A DNA stretch of 52,796 nucleotides, taken from the IMG/VR virus record IMGVR_UViG_3300034524_000081, positions 1 through 52,796 of that record; one strand, written 5' to 3'. The notes beneath the pieces were generated by a model, which was given only the letters and a program-made list of their open reading frames with translations, made no database searches and was not told the DNA's origin. The position numbers and the translations under genes were made by a program. Position 1 is the stretch's first letter. The number at the start of each line of letters is the position of its first letter. The stretch comes from a virus. Lineage: Duplodnaviria > Caudoviricetes. Below are positions 1,609 to 48,300 of this stretch, piece by piece.

Positions 1609-2235
1609 TTATGGCGTTATAACAATCTTAACTACCTTTCCTATTATTTTTACATCGCCTTTCTTTATTACCTTTGGTTTATATTTTGGGTTTTCAGGTT
1701 GGAGCACCAATAGCCCGTTTGTTTTAAATACTCTCTTGATTGTAGCTTCTTCATTATCAACCATTACTACTGCTATACTTCCATTGTCAACGTCATTTTG
1801 CTGCCTAACAAGAACTAGTGCTCCTTCCGGTATGTTTGCGTTTATCATTGAATCACCTTTTACTCGTAGAAAAAAATAGTTACCGTCCTTGACGGTTTCA
1901 AGTTCAACTACTTCATATCCTTCGATATTCTGCACCGCAAGAATAGGTTCACCTGCTTTTATTGTTCCTACTATGGGAATTTTTACGAGAGGTCCGGGAT
2001 AAAACCCTCCTATTTTTTCTATGATGTCTCTATTAGGGTTGCGGATGTTGGTTCGACCTGCTAACCAATCCAATGAGACGTTAAAATAATTGGCTATTTT
2101 GTTTAAAGTTTCTAAATCTGGTTCTCTTAATCCATTTTCATATGCACTTATAGCTTGTTGAGTTAAACCTAATATTTTTGCTAGTTCATTTTGGCTGATT
2201 TTCTTTTCTATTCGCAAATCTTTAATTTTGTTCAT
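1609..2235 (-). CDS. CI/LexA-like repressor (XRE HTH + S24 peptidase)
   Basis: HTH (SQNELAKILGLTQQAISAYENG), AG cleavage site (IKAGEP), GDSM serine and TIKR lysine; divergent from cro. Confidence 0.93.
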   Translation of the reverse strand: MNKIKDLRIEKKISQNELAKILGLTQQAISAYENGLREPDLETLNKIANYFNVSLDWLAGRTNIRNPNRDIIEKIGGFYPGPLVKIPIVGTIKAGEPILAVQNIEGYEVVELETVKDGNYFFLRVKGDSMINANIPEGALVLVRQQNDVDNGSIAVVMVDNEEATIKRVFKTNGLLVLQPENPKYKPKVIKKGDVKIIGKVVKIVITP

Positions 2236-2288
2236 TTGTATTCCTCCTTTCTTGATTCATATTATTTTATTTTTATTAAATATATTTT

Positions 2289-2401
2289 ACAACAACAAGT
2301 TGTAAAACCCAAAACATTATTTTGTTGTATTTTTGAAAATTATGTATTGACAACAACGAAATGTAGTTATATAATATAAACTGAACACAACAAAATGAAG
2401 T
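2289..2401. promoter_or_regulatory. Operator array, consensus ACAAC-N5-GTTGT (4 copies here, a fifth at 2623-2637)
   Basis: ACAACAACAAGTTGT 2289-2303; reverse copy 2314-2328; ACAACGAAATGTAGT 2353-2367; ACAACAAAATGAAGT 2387-2401; between divergent repressor and cro. Confidence 0.75.
2347..2375 (+). promoter_or_regulatory. Sigma-A type early lytic promoter
   Basis: TTGACA (2347-2352), 17-bp spacer, TATAAT (2370-2375); an operator fills the spacer. Confidence 0.85.
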
Positions 2402-2421
2402 ATTGGAGGTGATATTACAAC

Positions 2422-2661
2422 ATGAAAAGAGAATTATTAATAACCTTAAGAGGAACAAAAAGTCAAGATAAGTTAGCAAAAGAATTAGGAATATCACAGC
2501 AATTTTTAAGTGCGATAGAATTAGGAGTAAGAAATCCTAATGTTAAATTAATGAAAAAATTTGAGGAATATTTTAAAGTACCTATGGAAGAATTGTTTCC
2601 AGATATTTTTATGAATATACGCACAACAAAATGTGATATTAAGAAAAAGGAGGCAGGTTAA
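2422..2661 (+). CDS. Cro-like XRE HTH regulator
   Basis: SQDKLAKELGISQQFLSAIELG HTH; GGAGGT RBS; divergent from repressor. Confidence 0.9.
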   Translation: MKRELLITLRGTKSQDKLAKELGISQQFLSAIELGVRNPNVKLMKKFEEYFKVPMEELFPDIFMNIRTTKCDIKKKEAG

Positions 2662-2663
2662 TC

Positions 2664-2825
2664 ATGGAACTAATCATGAAAACTATAAACCTTTCAAGAT
2701 TAACCTTAGAAGATTACGAAAACCTAGAACAATTCAGTGAAATTTTAACCATTGGTTTTGAACGTTATATTAAGGAAGTCTTAAAAGAACAAAACGGAAA
2801 GGGAGTTAAAAGCAATGTATCCTAA
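2664..2825 (+). CDS. Small hypothetical early protein (53 aa)
   Basis: Read manually (MELIMKTINLSRL...); AGGAGG RBS; not in ORF track. Confidence 0.55.
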   Translation: MELIMKTINLSRLTLEDYENLEQFSEILTIGFERYIKEVLKEQNGKGVKSNVS

Positions 2826-2964
2826 AACGTTTCCTAAAACGCTTAAATCTCAAAAAATGCTTGTAGGTTTCTTTGCGGGGTCAATATCAGAGTTTAAGAA
2901 AAAAATAGCCGCCGGAAAACTTTTATCCGACAGCTACATAAAAAGAAAAACATGCCTGAATTAA
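2815..2964 (+). CDS. Small hypothetical early protein (49 aa)
   Basis: Read manually (MYPKTFPK...); GGGAG RBS; overlaps previous stop. Confidence 0.45.
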   Translation: MYPKTFPKTLKSQKMLVGFFAGSISEFKKKIAAGKLLSDSYIKRKTCLN

Positions 2965-2992
2965 GTTTATTTTGAAAGGAGGTCAAAAGAAA

Positions 2993-3469
2993 ATGACAGG
3001 TCTTGAAAAAATAATCAAACAGGCCACCAAGGAAGCTTTGCAGGACAGACTAAAGGATTATAACTTTGATGAAATCAAAAACACACTACTAGAATTCCCT
3101 GAAAAAATTAAAAATCAGAAAATGATAGTATCTAGACACCAAGAAATTGTCGAAGATTTAAAACAGCAGATAGAACAGGAAAAAGCTATAATGGAATCCG
3201 TTATCATGGCTGAAATCGAGGCAGAAAAAGACGAAAAAGGCAAGCTGATTTATTCGAATGCCGACAAAAGGAACAGAGAACTTATAATCAGGTTTGCCAA
3301 TTTGGCTACCGAAAACAGCGAATATCAGGAACTTGTTAACCGTTTCAAGGAAGCTGAAAAGAATTTGCAGGCAGCCCAATTTGAACTTGAAACCATAGAA
3401 AACAGCTTTAAAGTTCAGAAGTATATTGTCAAGTTAATTGAGTCGGAAGTTAAACTGATAACAGGCTAA
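2993..3469 (+). CDS. Coiled-coil hypothetical protein, possible recombination accessory factor
   Basis: ATG 2993 after AGGAGG; helical charged sequence; lies in recombination module. Confidence 0.6.
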   Translation: MTGLEKIIKQATKEALQDRLKDYNFDEIKNTLLEFPEKIKNQKMIVSRHQEIVEDLKQQIEQEKAIMESVIMAEIEAEKDEKGKLIYSNADKRNRELIIRFANLATENSEYQELVNRFKEAEKNLQAAQFELETIENSFKVQKYIVKLIESEVKLITG

Positions 3470-3516
3470 AAGCCTAAAAATCAAAATTAAAAAAATAAAA
3501 AGGAGAGTGATTTTAA

Positions 3517-4260
3517 ATGGCCATGAACGCCAATGAATTGATTCTAGCCAATACAAATGAATTGACCGAAGAAGAAAGAAAAGAACTAGAAACGATGATG
3601 AAAGAAGAAATGGAACAATCACGAGAAGGAATCGAACTAAGACCGACCCTTATAAAAATTAACAAAGATACACTTCAATTTTACGATCCTTTCGGGGAAA
3701 TGTTCAAAACTTTGGAGGGTACTGTAATTTACAAGCAAAAAATCAGAGGCTATTGGGATGACCCCACAGAAAAAGTGCCGGCATGTTCTTCAATGGATTG
3801 TATTAATGGGGTAGATACCGAAACAGGCAAGGTAAGAAACTGCGCAACCTGCCCCAATAATCAATGGGGAACAGCAATAGACCAAAAAGGAAACGCAACA
3901 AAAGGTAAGGCATGTAAAGAAATGAGGAGACTTTATATCCTTCGTGATGGCGACAGAGTACCGTGCCTGCTCAGAGTGCCGCCCACATCAATAAAAAACT
4001 GCGACATATACTTCAGCAACCGAATAAATAAAGGCATCCCCGATATAGCAAGGAAGACGGTATTAAGGCTTACTGAAGCATCGAGCGGAGGCTTTAGTTA
4101 CGCTGTTATCCAGTTTGAATTAGGCGACCCGGTAACCCTGCAGGAGTTTAAGGCTTACAGGGAAATGAGAAATGCAATTAAGGCCATAGCCCAGCAGACA
4201 CAGATTACAGCAGAGGATTATGAGGAAAATGAAGATGATTCGCTAAATGCATGGGAATAA
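3517..4260 (+). CDS. Putative ssDNA-binding/recombination protein with Cys cluster and acidic tail
   Basis: CSSMDC...CATCPNNQWG...KACK; acidic C-terminus EENEDDSLNAWE; position before SbcCD. Confidence 0.5.
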   Translation: MAMNANELILANTNELTEEERKELETMMKEEMEQSREGIELRPTLIKINKDTLQFYDPFGEMFKTLEGTVIYKQKIRGYWDDPTEKVPACSSMDCINGVDTETGKVRNCATCPNNQWGTAIDQKGNATKGKACKEMRRLYILRDGDRVPCLLRVPPTSIKNCDIYFSNRINKGIPDIARKTVLRLTEASSGGFSYAVIQFELGDPVTLQEFKAYREMRNAIKAIAQQTQITAEDYEENEDDSLNAWE

Positions 4261-4282
4261 TTTTGCAATAAACTCCATATCA

Positions 4283-4359
4283 GCCGAAACGCCCCGGTTT
4301 CCTCCTCCTTTCCGGGGCGTACAGCAGAGATGGCCAACTGCTGCTGATGAGGCAGGCCA
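4283..4359 (+). ncRNA. Type II hammerhead ribozyme with pseudoknot
   Basis: GCC-GAAA-C; stem III CGCCCCGG/CCGGGGCG; GUA cleavage triplet 4319-4321; stem I CAGCAG/CTGCTG; CTGATGA 4344-4350; stem II GGC/GCC; loop I TGGCC pairs with 3' GGCCA. Confidence 0.9.
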
Positions 4360-4378
4360 GGAAGGAGGTCAAGTAAAA

Positions 4379-4582
4379 ATGGGGTTAGATAGATTTGAAT
4401 ACGGATTTTCTGATCCACAAAGCGAAGAAGCAATAGTAATCTGTGCAGGGTGTGGTGGGGGAATACACAGAAACGAAGATGTATATGTTTTCGATGGAAA
4501 AATATTTCATGATGATTGGGCATGTTTGGTGCAATACATCGACCCCAAAATAATGACTGTGGAAGAAGCCCTGAGAATCTGA
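4379..4582 (+). CDS. Small Cys/His protein, putative zinc finger
   Basis: Likely start ATG 4379 after AAGGAGG; CAGC...H...C; the longer track ORF runs through the ribozyme. Confidence 0.7.
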   Translation: MGLDRFEYGFSDPQSEEAIVICAGCGGGIHRNEDVYVFDGKIFHDDWACLVQYIDPKIMTVEEALRI

Positions 4583-4623
4583 GAATGGTTTAAAAAACGA
4601 AAGTTTGAAGGGAGGTCTAAACA

Positions 4624-4953
4624 ATGCAAATGCAGACTTTTAAGGATTTAATTAAAAGATTTATTATTGAAACTCAATTGATAGAAGACGCAACCGAAGA
4701 CAATCTTATTATTTCAGACAATTATGCTAATAGAATTAAAGCACGTATAAAAAAACAAATACAAGACGAAATTGATATAATCTTAGATTCAAAATTCATA
4801 GATTGTGAACCAGACGTTTATAAGGTAAGTTGGTTTGATTTGATGTCAAAGGAAATAATCGAATCGTTTAACAATAATGACGCAAAATTAAAAAAAACAA
4901 TATGTCTTGTTGATGAACCTGAACCGGTCAAGGGGGTTGATCCACGTGATTAG
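4624..4953 (+). CDS. Hypothetical protein
   Basis: GGAGG RBS; operon context. Confidence 0.65.
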   Translation: MQMQTFKDLIKRFIIETQLIEDATEDNLIISDNYANRIKARIKKQIQDEIDIILDSKFIDCEPDVYKVSWFDLMSKEIIESFNNNDAKLKKTICLVDEPEPVKGVDPRD

Positions 4954-6382
4954 AAGTATAGAATTGGTAAATTTTCAATCCCACAAACATTCCATTATAA
5001 ATTTCGATTCCGGCTTAAATGTTATAGTAGGCCCTACCGATTCAGGAAAAACTGCAATTTTAAGAGCCTTCCGGTGGGTAGCATACAATACTGCTCCCGG
5101 AGATTTTATCAGAGTAGGCAGTAGTAAAGCCATTGTTACTATAACGGTTGAAAACGATGACAAAATCCAAAAAATAACCAGAGAAAGAAGCAGAGGGAGT
5201 ATTAACCGATACATTATCACTGACGAAAATGGAAACGAAAAAGTTTTGGAGGGATTCGGCACTTCTGTTCCGTTGGAAGTACAGAAGATTCTTAACGTAA
5301 GAGAAGTTGATTTCGGTGGCATAGTTTTAAGACCAAATATACTGGAACAGCTTGACGGCCCGTTTTTGGGAAAATCGGTGTCAGCCCCGAACAGAGCAAA
5401 GGTTCTAGGCAAACTTGCCGGCACTGAAAAAATAGATAAAGCAAACAAGGAACTGGGAACAGATTTATACCGCAAAGGGCAGGAAGAAAAACGAATTCAG
5501 AAAGACCTGAGACAATTGGAAGAAAATATAAAGGAATATGATTACCTTCCGGCCATAAAAGAAAGAATTGACATTCTGAAAGGCATACTTGAAAAGCTGA
5601 AAAAAGATAAAGAAATCCACACCAGACTGGTTTTCCTTAAAAACAATTTAGCGAATACAAAACGAGAATACGCAAGGACGCAGTATATTCTCGACAATTT
5701 AAATCTGATAATCCCTGAAACTGAAATAATTTTGAACGGCCTGATATTAGCCATAGAACATCACAAACGATTGAAAATGTTACAAACTAAATTCAATGAG
5801 GTTTTAATCGGCATAGAAAAAAACAAAAAAGTAATAGCAGAGACAAAAGAAATAGATAATGTTTTATCTATTATTAATTCTGCAAATCAGGCAGTAGAAA
5901 AGCATAATAGGCTGGTTAAGCTGTATCAAAAATATGTTTCAATTAATCAATCAGAGAAAAACAATCAATCGGTATTAGCCAGAACTCAATTTATTGATGA
6001 TATTCTTAATGATTTAGGAGAGATGAGGTTAAGGATTAACACTTATAAGCTATTTAAAACATTTAAAGAGAAATTAGACAGAATCATAAAACAAGAATCA
6101 GTTGCATCACAGCAGATAACCAAGACGGATTCAATCAATAAGGTATTTGAAATAGAAAACAGCATCAGAAATAAGATAGAGGAGTTTTTTGATCTGCAAA
6201 AATGGCAAAAACAAATGAATAATTTAACTTCAAGTATCAATGCTGCTCAAAAAAGAATAGATGAACTTAAACAAAAGGCTGAAAAAACCGAAGCTGATTA
6301 TATCAATACTTTAAAACAAATGGGGGTATGCCCGCTGTGCGGGAATAAAATTAATGAAAATAAATTAAAGGAGGTCATATAA
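4946..6382 (+). CDS. SbcC/Rad50-like ATPase, N-terminal part
   Basis: GTG start 4946; NFQSH, Walker A GPTDSGKT, long coiled coil, zinc-hook CPLCG. Confidence 0.88.
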   Translation: MIRSIELVNFQSHKHSIINFDSGLNVIVGPTDSGKTAILRAFRWVAYNTAPGDFIRVGSSKAIVTITVENDDKIQKITRERSRGSINRYIITDENGNEKVLEGFGTSVPLEVQKILNVREVDFGGIVLRPNILEQLDGPFLGKSVSAPNRAKVLGKLAGTEKIDKANKELGTDLYRKGQEEKRIQKDLRQLEENIKEYDYLPAIKERIDILKGILEKLKKDKEIHTRLVFLKNNLANTKREYARTQYILDNLNLIIPETEIILNGLILAIEHHKRLKMLQTKFNEVLIGIEKNKKVIAETKEIDNVLSIINSANQAVEKHNRLVKLYQKYVSINQSEKNNQSVLARTQFIDDILNDLGEMRLRINTYKLFKTFKEKLDRIIKQESVASQQITKTDSINKVFEIENSIRNKIEEFFDLQKWQKQMNNLTSSINAAQKRIDELKQKAEKTEADYINTLKQMGVCPLCGNKINENKLKEVI

Positions 6383-39343: not shown

Positions 39344-42300
39344 ATGGATGGGCAGAAAGTATGGGAAATGGTTGGTTACGGAGTAAAAAAATATAGAGAT
39401 TTATCAGATGACGAGAAAAAAGCTTTTTTAGAATATGGAATTACATCTGGGTTTATTGATACTGGTATGCTTACAGACAGAGAATGGCAGTTATTAAAGA
39501 AAAGCCCCGATTTTGCTTTAAGGAATATAAAAGAAGAAGAAAATAAAAGTGATACTTTAGGGGAAACAAAAAGCAATAAAATTGTTCAGAAAAGTCATGC
39601 ATTAGAATATAGAGATAAGTTTTCTGGTCAATTACCTAGTTATTATGGAGTAGGAGATTTAAGTATTCAAAGGAAAACTGATATTCAAAGAAAAACTGAT
39701 ATAGATAATCTTTTAAATGAGTTATTTATAACTCCAGCAGAAGAATATAGAGATAAGTTTTCCGGTCAATTGCCTAGTTATTATGGAGCAGAAGATTTAA
39801 GTATACCAAGAGATTTAGATATATCAAGAGATTTAGGTATATCAAAGAGAATAGAAAATGTTGTAAAAGAACCGATTACACAAAAAATATCAGATACTGA
39901 ATATAAAGAAAAATATTCGGGTAAATTACCAAGTTATTATGGTTTTGGCGGTTTAGAAAGTTTATCTTCTGATTATATTAGTAATATTAAAGATAAAAGA
40001 AAAGAACAAACAGAAGCATATAATAATATTATAGATAAAGTTATGCAGGGTGATGAATTAGCTGTAAAAGAATTGGAAGAAAAGTGGAATATAAACCCTG
40101 AATTTGCCAAAAAATATCCTTTTTTTACAAAAGCGGTATTATCTGTTGCAAAGCCAATTCGTGGTATTTTGGATATTCCTTTTTTAAATAGAGTAGCTCA
40201 ACGTGGTGCTGATGTGATAACAGCACATACAACTTCGGAAGAAAAAATACCGGATACTGGGAACAAATTCAAAAATACTGTGGCAGATATTATAGGAACA
40301 ATTGTAGGTTATTCAGTTCCACTTCCGGGGTTAAATCAGTCATGGATGGATATAGCCCACAAATCAGTAAGACCTATTACTTCTAAAGCTGGACAGGCAA
40401 TAGAAAATTTAATAACGAAAATAAAACCTGAAAACATCAAACAAGCTCAAAGGTTATTATGGGTAAAAGATGTTCTGCCGACAGCTATTGAATCAGGAGC
40501 CAGTTTAAGTGCATTAGAAGCACTTAGAGCAATAGCTGACCCTGCCTATGAAAAACTTCCTATTAAAGAAAAAGCAAAAGCTATGGGAAGTTCTTTTTTA
40601 TGGGGTATATTATTCGGAACAGTAGCAAGGACAGCAGAACCATATATGAAGGCTGCATGGCTTAAAGCAAGAGGCTACACAGAAACGAAGCCCGGTTCTG
40701 GTATATGGTTTAAACAGGGCGAAGGTATAATAATGGAGCCAACCAATTTTAGAAATGTTAAAGTCAGAAAAGAAATGTTCGATCAGCATATAAGAAAATG
40801 GTATGAATCTAAATACGGCAAAAATGTTCAAGGGATAACAGGAGAAACACAAACAACGCAGGCAGAACCACAGTCGGGCCGGCCAGAACAGCCGACAACA
40901 GCCATTGCACAAATTCCTCAGCTTAAAATAATTCAAAACGGCACTCGATATAAATTAATCAATATGGAAGATTTGAAGCGGACGGGCGGTGCGGTCCAGG
41001 TAAAAACCCCTGACGATAAAACTATAAGTACTTTCCCGACCGTAATATTAAACGGGCAGGAAATTCCTTCGTATAAAGTTCATGCTATGATTCAAGCTGG
41101 AATGAAAGGAATAGATTATGTATTGGCAGATCCACAGCCGGTAAGAGAAATTAATCCATTGGCAGAAGGTTTTAGGCAGACAGATGAAAGAACATGGGTT
41201 AATGATGAAACTAAAGAAGTTATAATAGATAATTCGGTGCAGGTTGCAGAACCGCCTATAAGTCCGATTACAGAAATACAATCCTTATCTTTGCCGGAGC
41301 AAATAATGCAACCCGAAAATATTATTGAACAGCCATCAGAAGTACAAGTACCGCAAGAGATAATTCCAGAAACAACAATATCGCCTTTGGAAGTTACACC
41401 AAAACAGGAAGAAATAAAAAAGCCTGAACAGGTTGATCATCTGTTGTCTTATTATCAAGAAAAACTTCCAGGTTCGTTGGCGTCCAAAATTGAAGGTGTA
41501 AAAGATTGGCAGGTTATAACAGAAGACGGAGAAAAAGTTATAAAAGGATCACTTATCGACGATAAACGAATAGTGGAGGAACTAGCACGAGATTTTGAAA
41601 GAGCAATTGATGTAGATAAAAAACGAGCTATAGCATTAAACCAACCACAGCATATTTTTTCACGCAAAATGGAAAATGGTATAGAATATAATATTACTAT
41701 TCCCGAAATAGGTTTAGTAAAAACTGTTCTTGAAATAGATAAAGAGCAGGGTCGTTGGTCCGGTAAAATTAATATTGAAATTAGAGCCAAAAAAGTAAAA
41801 GAAAAAGAAGAAGCAAAAGAAGTAAAAGAAGAACAGCAAAAAGAACCCGCAAGAGAAAAGGCCATAGGAGTAATTAGTGGTGGAAAGGCCGCTAGAATAG
41901 AAGAAAAAGGGTATGAATTTGTTTATGGCGATATGGACGAAGAAACATTTTATAATATAGTAGGTATGCTCGGAGGAAATTATGCAGATAGATTAAAAGA
42001 AGCAGGAATAACAATAAAGCCCCGAGAAGAAAAACCTAAAATCAAAGAAACTGCAAAGGAAACATGGCGATTTACAGAAGAAGAAATCAAGGAAATTCCT
42101 GTTACCAAAGCAGGGCAAAAGGCATTACAGAATCAAAATCCTTTATTGAATGATTTTATTAGGTGGTTCAAGGAAAAAAATAACGGCTTTAATGGATTCA
42201 AACTGTCAACATATAAAGATGGAGAACCTGTGTTTTTAGGTAACGGAATAGAAGTTTCCTTGAGAGATTATTTAGGGAAAAAAGAACCAACAAAACAATC

Positions 42301-45300
42301 CAAACCAATAAAAATCTCCGAGCAAAAATCTGAAAAATCTGGTACAATTAAAGAAGAAAAAGAATCTGTAAGAAAAAACCAAACACCATATACCCAAATA
42401 GCAGATGAAGTTGTAAAAGCACTTTCTGCTGGCCGTAAATTAACAAATCAAGACCTGTTTGAAATAGCCGATAAATATTTTGGTGGAACGCAGGCCGAAG
42501 GCAAATACACATCCAAAGATGTGTATGATGCTATGGAACTAGGTGTAAATAAATATATTTTAAATACAAAAGGTTTGAGCGTTGGGCCTTTAGCAAATGT
42601 TCATTCCGCAATAAACAATTTAAGTAATATCGAAGAATTTGTTTTAGATAACATTCCTACTCAAAACAGAAGAACGTTGGAAACCAATGAATTACAGCAG
42701 TTTTCCACTCCACCCAATATAGCTTATACTGCCACATGGGTAGCTAATATATATCCGAATGATGTTGTATTAGAACCCAGCGCAGGAGTAGGCGGGTTAG
42801 CTGTATTCGCCAAAAAAGCAAAAGCCGATAAAGTTTACGTAAATGAAATAGCGCCTAGAAGAATAGAATTATTAAAAGAATTAGGATTTGATAAGGTATT
42901 TACCGAAAATGCAGAACAGCTAGATAACATTCTTCCCGATGAAATAAAGCCAACGGTAATACTTATGAATCCTCCTTTCAGTACTGCAGCAACAAGGGTA
43001 AAAGGTAAAAAGAATACCCAGTTTATAAAAGCTCATATTGAACAGGCATTGAAACGTCTCGAACCCAATGGGAGGCTTGTTGCTATAACCGGCAGAGGGT
43101 TAGCAGAAGGCAAACCGGCTTTTGCTGATTGGTGGAAAGACATTAAAAAAGAATACAATGTAAGGGCCAATATAAGTATAGATGGAGAAAATTACAAGAA
43201 ATACGGAACTCAATTTGATGTTCAGTTAATTGTAATAGATAAAAACGGTCCGACATACGGGAGTGTTATTACCGACAAGGTAGATACCCTCGAAGATGCC
43301 ATAAAAATATTGGAGGGGATAAAACGTGAAAGAACAAAACTTGAACGTGAAAGAGCAAAAGCTGATCGACAAGATGAACAAGCGGTTAAAACTGATAGAG
43401 AAATTAAATCGTCATCCGCTGAACATGTTGGCGAAGAGGTTTCTGAAACAAGCAGAGGAAGTGCTAGAGGAGACAATACTACACCTGTATCAACTAATGA
43501 TGTGGGGGCTGGAACAGCCGGAAATGAAACAAATGTTTTACCAGAACAACCAACAAGAGAAATCATGGCTGGATCTGTGGACGCTGGTGGGCGAACTGGC
43601 GAGCGAAATGACGCATCCGCAGTTGGCAATGAACCTGTTTCTCAAATCGAAGATAATGCCGGAATACCAGATAAGACAAGAGCTGAAACAGGCGAAAAAT
43701 CCGGTGGACGCAGCGGTGTTTCTTCTACAGCTGTTAGCGGAGACAGAGGAATCAATGTAAAGGATACAGAAAAAATCGAAATACAAAAAACAGAAACTAA
43801 AAAGAAAAACGATTTAGGAGACAGCGTTTATACTCCTTATGAACCACAAAAATTAAAAATTAAAGATGCTAAACCGCATCCCGGAAAACTTGTTCAGAGT
43901 GCGGCGATGGATGCTGTTTTGCTTCCCGATCCGATATATCAACCCTCACTGCCCAAAGAAGTGATAGAAGAAGGGAAACTATCAATTGCACAATTAGAAG
44001 CAGTAGTATATGCAGGTCAAGCTCATGAGCAAATACTTCCCGACGGAAAACGAAAAGGCTTCTTTATCGGAGATGGAACGGGTGTAGGCAAAGGGAGAGA
44101 AATCGCAGGAATAATTTTAGACAATATGAGGCAGGGTAGAAAGAAAGCAGTTTGGATAAGCATGAATCAGGACCTTTACAAAGACGCAATAAGAGACTGG
44201 ACAGGGATCGGAGGAAACAGAGAAGAAATTTTTAATTTATCGGAGACTTCTTATGATTCTCCAATACAGAGAGAATCGGGGATCGTATATACTACTTACG
44301 CCACCCTGATTAACAATTCAAAAGATTTTATCAAATCGGGCGAAGAAAAGACGGAATCGCTGAAAACAAGAATAGGCCAACTTATCAATTGGTTGGGAAA
44401 AGATTTTGATGGTGTAATAGCTTTTGATGAATCTCATAAAATAAGAAATTTAGGAAATAAAAAAGGCAAATTCGGCAAACAAAAACCAGCAGTTACAGCA
44501 GAGACAGCAGAACTGTTTAGAAATAGTCTGCCAAATGCAAGAATAGTGTATGTTAGCGCAACGGGGGCAACAGATGTCGGTGATCTCGGTTATCTTGATA
44601 GATTAGGATTATGGGGCAGAGGAACTCCATTTAGCAGTAAAAACGATTTTATAAGCAAAATAGAAGCCGGCGGACTGGCTGCAATGGAACTTGTTGCAAG
44701 AGATATGAAGGCTATGGGAGTTTATCTTGCCAGAAACCTTTCTTATGAAGGCGTTGAATATTCAACCGTAGTCCATGAACTAACAAAGGAACAGCAAAAA
44801 GTTTATGACACTCTTGCTGAAGCATGGCAGGTTATTTTGCAGAATTTAGACAAAGCATTGGAAGTAACCAATATGGGTGAAAACGGCAGAAATAGAGGCA
44901 AGGTATATTCCAGCTTTTGGGGAGCACATCAGAGGTTTTTTAATCAGGTAATCACATCGATGCAGATGCCGGCAGTTTTAAAAGAAGCAGAAAAAGACCT
45001 TGCAGATGGTCATGCTGTTGTGATGCACGTTGATTTTACCGGTGAAGCAACCCAGGAAAGATTGTTTTCAAAAATTGCAGAAGAAGGTATAGATATAGAG
45101 GAAATATCCATAACGCCGTTAGATATTGTGATGCAGTATATTGATAATTGTTTTCCTATTTATCAATATGAAGTTGTTGAAAAAGATGGTAAGAAGTCCG
45201 TAGAATTGGTTAAAGATAGCGCAGGTAACCCTGTTATAAATAAAACAGCGCTTCGCATAAAAGAAGATTTGATGCAGAGGGTTGGTTCTTTAAGGATACC

Positions 45301-48300
45301 GTCTAATCCGATTGATATGGTTATTGAAGCGTTTGGACCTAAAAATGTTGCAGAAATAACAGGAAGAAGTAGAAGAATAGTAAAGGTTATAGATGAAAAA
45401 ACAGGACAGGAAAAACACGTAACAGAAAAAAGAACAGATAAAGTAAGAGAACTAGAAGCAGATGAATTTATGGACGATAAAAGACGTGTCCTGATATTCT
45501 CAAGGAAAGGCGGAACAGGTAGAAGCTATCATGCAGACCTTACCTGTAAGAACCAACGGTTAAGGATGCATTATGTAGTGCAGCCGGGGTTCAGCGCAGT
45601 TAACGCAGTGCAGGGTTTTGGACGAACGCACAGAAGCAATCAGAAACAGCCTCCGCATTTTAAATTGTTTACAACAAACATTGAAGGGCAGAAACGCTTT
45701 ATATCGTCCATAGCAAGAAAGCTGGATCAGTTGGGTGCTTTAACAAAAGGGCAGAGGCAAACCGGCGGGCAGGGCCTGTTTAGTGCAAAGGATAATCTTG
45801 AAGACGAATTAGCAAGAGATGCATTAGAAAGATTCTACAGGCATTTAGTACGTGGAGATTTTCCCGACATTGATAAGTCTGTTTTAAAAAGAATGGGATT
45901 AGACAGGGCATTGTTAGATGAATATGGAAATATTATATCATCAGCGCCACAGCTTAGGGAGACTCCCAATTTCCTGAACAGGGTATTGGCATTAACTGTT
46001 GAAGAACAAAACAAAGTATTTACCCGATTTAAAGAAATACATGACAAAATGGTAGAAGCGGCCATAGAACGTGGAGAATTGGATTTTGGACTTGAAAACT
46101 ATGCGGCAGATAAAGTTGAAGTAAATGAAGAAAGACTTATTAGAACAGACAAATTAACAGGGGATACGTTTTATTATAATCTGACAGCCTATCACAAAAA
46201 CGACATATTAAAATTTGAAGAAATAGACAGGCATATCAAAAATAACAAAGAATCGTTTTTAGGTTTTTATCAAAATACTCGAAGCAAAAATATTAGAGCA
46301 GTATTTAAAACATCGAAAACGAAAACGTTGTCCAATGGCGATATTATTGACGTTTATGTGATGCATGGGCAGTTGCCCCATCAAAAAGGTTATATAGATG
46401 AAAAAACTTTTGATAAGGCAAACTGGCAGCCCATAGAAAATAAACTGGATGCAGAAAAACTATGGAACGATGCAGTTGATAAAACTCCACAATACAGAAC
46501 AGAAACTCTCCACTTAATCAGCGGAAGCCTCCTTCCTGTCTGGGACAGGCTGCCTTCCGGCCATGTTAGAGTTGTAAGGGTTTTAACTGATGACGGCAGG
46601 GTTATTCTTGGCAGATTAATAAAGCAAAGAGAAATAGAATACACTTTAACAAAATTGGGCGCAGAGGCCAGCAAAAAAGATATAGATATAAACGATATAC
46701 CGAATAAAATATTGCAGGATGATTATGTTTTTGTTTTGTCTAACGGATGGCGATTGATAAGGAAAAAAGTTGCGGGAGAATACCGCATAGAAATATCTGA
46801 TGCAGGGGCCAGCGCTAATCTGTTTGATTATCGTGAACAATTATTAGAAGATGGTGTATTTGCAGAAATAGTCGGCGGTTGGAAGACAAGATACTTCATT
46901 CCTACCGAACCGCAGAAAGCAAAAGAAGTAATTCAAAAGATAACAGAATACAGGCCGGTAATTGAGGCCATACCGCCAGAACCTAAAGGCAGTCTTGCAA
47001 GCAAAGAATATTACGATTTAGGAGATGCAGAAGAAACTGCGGAAGATAGGGGAACAGAAGTAAAAGTTGCAACAGACAAAGTCGGGAAAAAACTTTTCCG
47101 CAGAGATATAGTAAATTATCTCAAAGAAAAACTCGATATTCCTGTACGTTTTAGAAGATACAGAAAACGGGCATTAGGTTTATATAAAAACAAACCCGAA
47201 GAAATAAGATTGAAATATAAAGAAGACTTAACAACCCTAGCCCATGAAGTCGGCCATCATATAGACAAAATAATTGAATTGAACAAAGAAACAACAAAAG
47301 AACTTATTCAATTAGCCAGAGAACGCGGTTATAAAAAACAGCTGCGTCAAGAAGGAGTGGCTATTTTTATTGAAAAATGGTTTACCGATCCCGAAGAAGC
47401 AAAACTAATTGCTCCAAGATATTTTGAAATTTTTGAATCAAGGCTTGCCGATTACCCTGAAATAGAAGAAATACTTAAGACTGCCCAGGCAGATATTCAG
47501 GATTTTCTGTCTATGCCTGTATTGGATAGAGTTGCAGCAAGCATATCTTTTGAGCCAAAAGATGGAGTAAGGAAAAGACCTATCAATTTTAAGCAATGGT
47601 TTACTTCTTTATGGGCGGCATGGTTTGATGAACTTGAACCAGTAAAATATTTTGAAGAAATATTGGCAGGAGACAAAAAATTATCTATTAAAGAAAGTCC
47701 GTTCTATCAATTATGGTTAATGAGAGGCGCAACTGATTTGGCCAGAACTGCAATAGAAGGAGATGGTATAAAAGACGCTGATTATAATACAGTATTTTCT
47801 TCCTTGAGAGAAATATTATCTCCTATAAAAACAGAAAAAGAACAGAGAATGTATGTGTATTATGATGCAACGATGAGGGCACTTGAATTATATGATAAGG
47901 GATTCAGCAAAAGAGCGATAGGAATAGAAGCGACAGAAGAAGAACTGAATAAGCTGCGAAATTATTTAGAAACCAACTATCCGCATTTTATAGAAATAAG
48001 AAAAAAACATTTGGTATGGAGAGATAAAATTAATATTCAAACATTAGTAGATGCAGGTTTGCTTGACGAATCGACCGCACAAAAGATAAGAGGATCCAAC
48101 CCGCAGTATGCTCCATTTTATAGAGTTATGGACGAAGAATCTATAAATATGTTTACGGGAGGAATTGGAAGTAGAGGCAGACTGGCCAATTTGCCGAAGC
48201 CGATAAAAAGATTTACGGGTAGCGGTGGCACTATAATTAATACGTTAGATTCAGATATTAAAAATGCTTTTACTTTTTTGAATATGGCGCAGAGAAATGC

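Follow-up and report, generated by a model that had tools for sequence, protein, structure and literature searches.

A probable self-cleaving type II hammerhead ribozyme between early genes of a Bacillota-type temperate phage

The window analysed here comprises 52,796 nucleotides and is a complete viral record from a temperate phage. The RNA encoded at 4282-4361 (+) is very probably a genuine pseudoknotted type II hammerhead, which would cut itself after A4321 within the early rightward polycistronic transcript of this Bacillota-type phage. It is an ordinary member of a ribozyme class known since 2011, and it is cleanly placed. The first-pass annotation had proposed a hammerhead at this position from the letters of the sequence, and the finding of a genuine, well-placed family member supports that interpretation.

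Family membership and structure

We searched both strands of the whole window with cmscan against 4227 Rfam families. RF02276 (Hammerhead_II) matched 4282-4361 (+) over model positions 1-66 of 66, with 40.7 bits against a gathering score of 37 and an E value of 6.3e-5, corrected for all families and both strands. This was the sole match above a gathering score, and it answers the check that the first-pass annotation had named for its claim, an Infernal search with the Rfam hammerhead models. When RF02276 was searched as a single family, the E value was 1.5e-8, and none of 14 control genomes was matched. The margin over the cut-off is 3.7 bits, and it is small in part because of the 14-nt insertion in loop III. 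No second ribozyme was found in the window in a permissive scan (E up to 10), which returned eight additional sub-threshold matches to unrelated families; the best of these had an E value of 0.35 and fell far below its cut-off.

The letters of 4282-4361 (+) are AGCCGAAACGCCCCGG-UUUCCUCCUCCUUU-CCGGGGCGUA^CAGCAGAGAUGGCCAACUGCUGCUGAUGAGGCAGGCCAGG, where ^ is the predicted cut. The topology is that of type II: stems I and III are capped by loops, while the 3-bp stem II is open, and both RNA ends exit there. The 5' strand of stem II (GCC, 4283-4285) pairs with GGC at 4351-4353, and this helix is present in the minimum free energy (MFE) fold. It is followed by the core GAAA (G12, A13, A14 and A15.1; 4286-4289) and by the stem III hairpin of 9 bp (4289-4297 with 4312-4320), in which eight of the nine pairs are G-C and which closes loop III, 14 nt long and entirely pyrimidine (UUUCCUCCUCCUUU, 4298-4311). 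The triplet GUA occupies 4319-4321, so that by hammerhead core numbering cleavage is predicted after A17, which is A4321 (4321/4322), with a 3' product that would begin at C4322. Stem I (CAGCAG/CUGCUG, 4322-4327 with 4338-4343) carries the 10-nt loop I (4328-4337) and leads into the core CUGAUGA (C3 to A9; 4344-4350), the 3' strand of stem II and the 3' tail GGCCA (4355-4359). The core assignments follow from the sequence and the Rfam alignment.

Perreault et al. 2011 (PMC3088659) accepted candidates on an invariant core and core-adjacent pairs free of mispairs; type II hammerheads of this kind also have a pseudoknot of at least 4 bp. In the window, the invariant core is intact (CUGAUGA at 4344-4350, GAA at 4286-4288, the pair A4289-U4320, and A4321 as H17). 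The core-adjacent pairs C4322-G4343 (N1.1-N2.1) and G4351-C4285 (N10.1-N11.1) contain no mispair. Loop I pairs through UGGCC (4331-4335) with the GGCCA just 3' of stem II, forming a pseudoknot of 5 bp with an RNAduplex energy of -9.8 kcal/mol. Direct reading of the sequence thus returned every permuted core element, and the pseudoknot, where the first-pass annotation had put them.

Single-sequence folding of a 139-nt context gave the three-way junction as the MFE structure. The ribozyme fold was not significantly more stable than those of shuffled sequences (z -1.3). Since its energy is unremarkable in this comparison, the evidence for the ribozyme is the model match, not the fold energy.

Genomic setting

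The left end of the window encodes, divergent from the early genes and upstream of them, a large serine integrase (69-1571, -) and a CI/LexA-like repressor (1609-2235, -). An early rightward promoter-like site, TTGACA-17-TATAAT at 2347-2375 (+), agrees with the consensus at 12 of 12 positions and lies about 1.9 kb upstream of the ribozyme; a Cro-like HTH gene is found 3' of it. Two promoter-like sites on the minus strand (2306-2279 and 2292-2264) are located just upstream of the repressor start and oppose the rightward site. The region 2264-2375 looks like a typical lysogeny switch. No terminator-like site on the plus strand was found in 2200-5200. We also considered stem III as a terminator and rejected it, as the stem has no U-run on its 3' side and the plus strand has no terminator-like site there. 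The placement of the ribozyme in an early operon, as first proposed, is borne out by the 12/12 sigma-70 promoter upstream, the lack of a plus-strand terminator-like site in 2200-5200, the divergent integrase and repressor genes, and the SbcC/SbcD-like genes downstream.

The ribozyme occupies a 118-nt gap between the stop codon of a 247-aa gene (at 4260) and ATG 4379. The 247-aa gene (3517-4260, +) belongs to phrog_23155, a family of unknown function, and is separated from the ribozyme by a spacer at 4261-4281. A Shine-Dalgarno (SD) sequence, AGGAGG at 4363-4368 (+), begins 3 nt past the pseudoknot tail and ends 10 nt before ATG 4379. An open reading frame at 4247-4582 runs across the ribozyme; judged from the sequence, it probably starts at ATG 4379, which would give a Cys-rich protein of 67 aa (4379-4582, +) belonging to phrog_4331, also of unknown function. 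Residues 16-55 of this product match positions 18-58 of the 68 in the phrog_4331 profile, and ATG 4247 is without an SD. The suggestion that a spurious N-terminal extension hides the ribozyme is therefore plausible, given the AGGAGG-N10-ATG arrangement and the phrog_4331 fit. Downstream, the order is the 67-aa ORF, a 109-aa ORF, and then SbcC-like, ATPase, SbcD-like and RecD2 genes. The first-pass annotation had put the ribozyme between an SSB-like gene and the SbcCD genes; the position is correct, but the 67-aa and 109-aa ORFs intervene before the SbcC-like gene.

The SSB-like label itself holds only as far as a predicted OB fold. The 247-aa protein had no match in Pfam, PDB sequence or PDB profile searches. 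Its AlphaFold model (pLDDT 82.9) shows an OB fold, and four cysteines (C90, C109, C112 and C133) are invariant across the aligned family. In a Foldseek search of the model against the PDB there was no match at E <= 0.001. Ranked by Z score, the best structural match was to one chain in the entry for the phiC31 integrase-RDF (gp3) excisive synapse, with 152 residues aligned and a Z of 8.9, which is only modestly above the usual background; the next matches were OB domains of BRCA2 (Z 6.3), T4 gp32 (Z 6.0) and RB69 gp32 (Z 5.5). On the basis of the model, we classify the product as a predicted zinc-type OB-fold protein that is otherwise unclassified. Given the large serine integrase of this phage, the 247-aa gene could encode the recombination directionality factor of that enzyme, either in place of an SSB or in addition to that role.

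Homologues of the 247-aa gene come from a Bacillota MAG and from Alicyclobacillus, which indicates Bacillota hosts. Metagenomes of subsurface, sand and oil-field origin, produced by several studies, contain DNA of this phage; the source itself may account for three of these samples. The late region of the window contains a single ORF of 3583 aa (39344-50095, +).

Relatives, intercistronic layout and conservation

A 16-mer taken from the 3' part of the ribozyme was matched exactly in 112 viral-contig stretches, 88 of which were hammerhead-like, with CGAAA upstream. A core-to-core pattern search of viral contigs added at least 120 further stretches. A parser that required at least four canonical pairs in stem I and in stem III each then yielded at least 199 instances and at least 144 distinct type II hammerheads, the window copy included. 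We aligned the 144 listed hammerheads to the structure of the window copy. The parser had in part chosen for stems I and III, and the search patterns had set the core and stem II columns in advance. Within that limit, pairing is seen in 91.0% of 2960 cells of this alignment, and sliding the partner by 1-3 columns lowers the share to 32.5-39.6%. Changes on both sides of a pair occur in 751 cells, compared with a mean of 239 after shuffling, and the covariation score was reached by none of 500 shuffles. The pseudoknot helix played no role in the choice of sequences, and both-side changes occur at all five of its pairs among the 144 (for example UGACC/GGUCA, UCGCC/GGCGA and UGGCU/AGCCA). The pseudoknot of the window copy is the commonest type among the matches listed.

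Of the listed hammerheads, 42 of 144 have no match of at least 3 bp between loop I and the tail. A second type II subclass (alignment A1) has a short GUNA-like loop I, a tail that starts with C or U, and no Watson-Crick pseudoknot between the two; this subclass presumably uses another tertiary contact.

Close relatives of the locus were not recovered. A megablast search of 3400-5400 against phage records gave no match, an exact 24-nt ribozyme pattern had no matches in viral contigs, the 67-aa and 491-aa proteins had no relatives in viral contigs, and the 67-aa protein had no tblastn match in phage records. These searches consequently yielded no covariation specific to this lineage.

The surroundings of the window copy were compared with those of the other phage hammerheads. 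In the window, the distance from the upstream stop to the ribozyme is 22 nt, and that from stem II to the start codon is 25 nt. Among the matches listed there are 170 distinct contexts. In 155 of these, an SD, a start codon and an ORF of at least 30 codons occur within 80 nt after stem II, and in 159 an ORF on the same strand, 40 codons or longer, ends within 60 nt upstream. For 65-nt slots placed at random in the same loci, the corresponding counts were 859 of 5000 (SD and start) and 1784 of 5000 (upstream ORF), with draws on very short loci skipped and counted as misses. The distance from stem II to the start has a median of 24 nt in the listed phage contexts (quartiles 20, 24 and 34). Phage type II hammerheads thus normally occur in the order stop, ribozyme, SD, start, a layout that was already described in outline in 2011 (PMC3088659). 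The gap between the upstream stop and the ribozyme has a median of 1 nt among the listed contexts, the stop often sharing a base with the first nucleotides of the ribozyme; in most phage copies, a ribosome terminating there would therefore be positioned on the 5' strand. The 22-nt spacer of the window is an exception to this tight packing.

Perreault et al. 2011 (PMC3088659) describe type II hammerheads with a loop I pseudoknot as common in prophages near integrase genes, report copies flanking single genes, and show in vitro cleavage within polycistronic constructs of about 2 kb. The window copy shares the permuted topology, the invariant core, the pseudoknot and the prophage context near an integrase with these RF02276 hammerheads. 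It differs from them in its loop III (14 nt, pyrimidine, against the usual 3-5 nt in 117 of the 144 listed), in its stop gap (22 nt against a median of 1 nt among listed contexts), and in being a single copy, not one of a flanking pair or array. Phage hammerhead arrays, described in the same source and seen here in L134 and L147, have the same placement between a stop and the next SD and start; the window, however, has one copy, with the 247-aa gene upstream of it and, downstream, two small ORFs followed by the SbcCD-like recombination/repair genes. The arrays are dense: at least eight pattern matches fall within 4 kb in L134 (890-4792), at least five within 2.3 kb in L147 (10788-13090), and at least four within 3 kb in L146 (2152-5075).

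One identical 66-nt hammerhead (L019-type) occurs on 22 viral contigs. The sequence upstream of it is near-constant in 21 of the 22, whereas at least three unrelated downstream sequences or genes start within a few nt of its 3' end. This combination of a constant upstream side and differing downstream sides suggests that the L019-type ribozyme marks a recombination or mosaic junction.

The ribozyme is not conserved with its neighbouring genes. No hammerhead (E <= 1) was found in any of 26 loci that encode homologues of the 247-aa protein (30-46% identity), at least two of which end at or just after the match. In one of them (L228), the 247-aa homologue is directly followed by the SbcC-like gene, so the ribozyme and the two small ORFs appear as extra elements in the window phage.

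A near-identical strain (run X5) has five substitutions and two insertions (AAAG and AA) clustered in 4259-4281, which includes the spacer, and in its low-depth contigs no change is listed in 4282-4320. This pattern gives a weak hint of constraint on the ribozyme sequence. The X5 contigs also have a gap at 4321-4331, to which we give no weight as evidence of cleavage. An RNA-library run (X9) yielded a contig of 162 nt at 4482-4643, which lies outside the ribozyme and may be DNA carry-over, and a partial match that is unrelated; contigs of this kind cannot reveal RNA ends.

Alternative readings and proposed function

Two alternatives deny the element an active role. It is quite improbable that the sequence is a decayed hammerhead, without useful cleavage in vivo, that persists as a structured spacer or has no function. 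Such a relic would suit an isolated single copy in a phage with no second ribozyme, absent from all 26 homologous loci, and it would suit the unusually large loop III, a stem I of 6 bp where 7-8 are commoner among the listed hammerheads, and an H17 that is A (16 of 144 listed) rather than C (122 of 144). Core positions and the pairs next to them are all intact, however; GUA is among the permitted triplets, the pseudoknot is of the commonest family type among the matches listed, and the X5 strain keeps 4282-4320 unchanged next to a spacer with seven changes. Less credible still, and hardly to be entertained, is the idea that no RNA element exists, the sequence being either a chance match within a real N-terminal extension from ATG 4247 or part of a minus-strand ORF (4218-4523). 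Both this ORF and 4247-4582 (+) do span the ribozyme, and the two X5 insertions total 6 nt. A chance origin is nevertheless difficult to reconcile with an E value that already accounts for all families and both strands. The SD precedes ATG 4379 at a distance of 10 nt and is lacking at ATG 4247, the 68-position phrog_4331 profile suits the 67-aa form, and the layout of stop, ribozyme, SD and start is that of 155-159 of the 170 listed phage cases.

A third alternative retains the hammerhead and adds a function for its loop III. Loop III (4298-4311) is complementary to the SD region at 4359-4368, and RNAduplex gives this pairing -13.9 kcal/mol, with 9 bp and one bulge. The candidate anti-SD is 5' of the predicted cut and the SD is 3' of it. 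The ribozyme might then serve as a translational switch, a reading we consider unlikely: the loop III anti-SD CCUCCUCC would mask the SD of the 67-aa gene in the uncleaved RNA, and cleavage would unmask it irreversibly. In the hammerhead fold, loops I and III face in opposite directions. As the two pairings also share the 3' tail, the loop III:SD duplex and the loop I pseudoknot should exclude each other, which suggests competition between a masked, slow-cutting state and an open, fast-cutting state that is resolved by cleavage. The duplex is stronger than the pseudoknot (-9.8 kcal/mol), and its strength is rare: 37 of 20000 random 14-mers of window composition equalled it, and it is an outlier among the 144 listed hammerheads, where it ranks second lowest and the one lower value (L030) belongs to a long stem with interruptions rather than to a loop. 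The window contains CCTCCTCC a single time, and the geometry of an H-type pseudoknot appears feasible. On the plus strand there is one longer pyrimidine run, at 1578; it and the next longest (2241) lie at the starts of the two minus-strand genes.

Several observations weigh against the switch. A comparable true loop is present in none of the 143 other listed distinct hammerheads. When hammerheads of the CCGAAAC type were scanned for CCUCC in stem III, 21 stretches (about 11 hammerheads) were recovered, three of which had CCUCC in the loop; the pairings of these three were weak (-5.4 to -7.3 kcal/mol) and their number is no more than expected by chance. The calculated SD accessibility is 0.64 in the uncleaved RNA and 0.66 in the 3' product, from a nested partition function that cannot represent pseudoknots. 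The feature was noticed after the fact, and a (CCT)n tract may arise by slippage. Moreover, the plus strand is 58% purine, so that a pyrimidine loop finds partners easily, GAGGAAA at 4222-4228 being an example. Because the loop III feature is absent from relatives, the masking role is speculative. No natural hammerhead with an anti-SD loop was found in the literature searched, which covered few subscription journals.

Further features of this region were considered. Loop III as a minus-strand SD (AAAGGAGGAGGAAA) was rejected, since no start codon lies closer than 22 nt and the one at that distance begins a frame of only 11 codons. An outer helix (4271-4278/4379-4386) that would surround the ribozyme and mask the AUG appeared in one MFE fold only and was lost with more flanking sequence; we rejected it as not robust. 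A second CUCC, at 4273-4276 just upstream of the ribozyme, pairs with the SD at a probability of 0.6 when 181 nt are folded; with 251 nt the pairing is lost.

Engineered devices offer a comparison. Ogawa and Maeda, and Wieland and Hartig in 2008, reportedly built aptazyme riboswitches in which hammerheads mask the ribosome-binding site, and the RiboJ insulator of Lou et al. in 2012 is said to be an engineered hammerhead. The window shares with such devices a hammerhead directly 5' of an SD, whose cleavage would detach the upstream RNA; in the masking designs it releases the anti-SD strand. Those devices are synthetic and mask the SD in an extended stem, whereas the candidate anti-SD of the window is loop III, through a pseudoknot pairing. 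If the switch were true, it would parallel, in nature, the translational switches engineered from ribozymes.

We return to the preferred reading, that of a self-cleaving hammerhead in the early transcript. In the transcribed RNA, stems III and I would fold, the 3-bp stem II would close the core, and the 3' tail GGCCA would pair with loop I, after which the RNA would cut itself behind A4321. The upstream message, from the cro-like gene through the 247-aa gene, would form the 5' product, whose end would be the G+C-rich stem III hairpin bearing a 2',3'-cyclic phosphate. A 5'-OH directly at stem I would open the 3' product, leaving 41 nt ahead of AGGAGG and 57 nt ahead of ATG 4379; this RNA would carry the small genes together with the SbcCD-like and RecD2 genes. 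As only 3 bp join the products, they should separate after the cut. Cleavage would in this way let each half of the operon have its own stability and translation, and the downstream ribosome-binding site would gain a 5' context that is fixed and insulated. Self-cleavage after A4321, its occurrence in vivo and these consequences are what we infer from the sequence. A comparable role, the cutting of long phage transcripts into gene- or operon-length mRNAs, is proposed in the 2011 study (PMC3088659). The glmS ribozyme is likewise self-cleaving, bacterial and embedded in an mRNA, and its cut alters the fate of the downstream message, as described in a 2019 review (PMC6765202). It differs in its fold, ligand dependence, location in a 5' UTR and conservation with its gene; for the window hammerhead no ligand is known, and conservation with the genes around it is lacking.

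According to that review, more work is required before the purpose of bacterial and phage hammerheads is defined (PMC6765202). The window provides a lone, cleanly placed copy at the border between the upstream early genes and the small ORFs with the recombination and repair genes that follow. With no other copy in the phage, a strong SD next to it and a loop that is a candidate anti-SD, it would make a convenient construct for measuring the effect of cleavage on downstream translation or stability.
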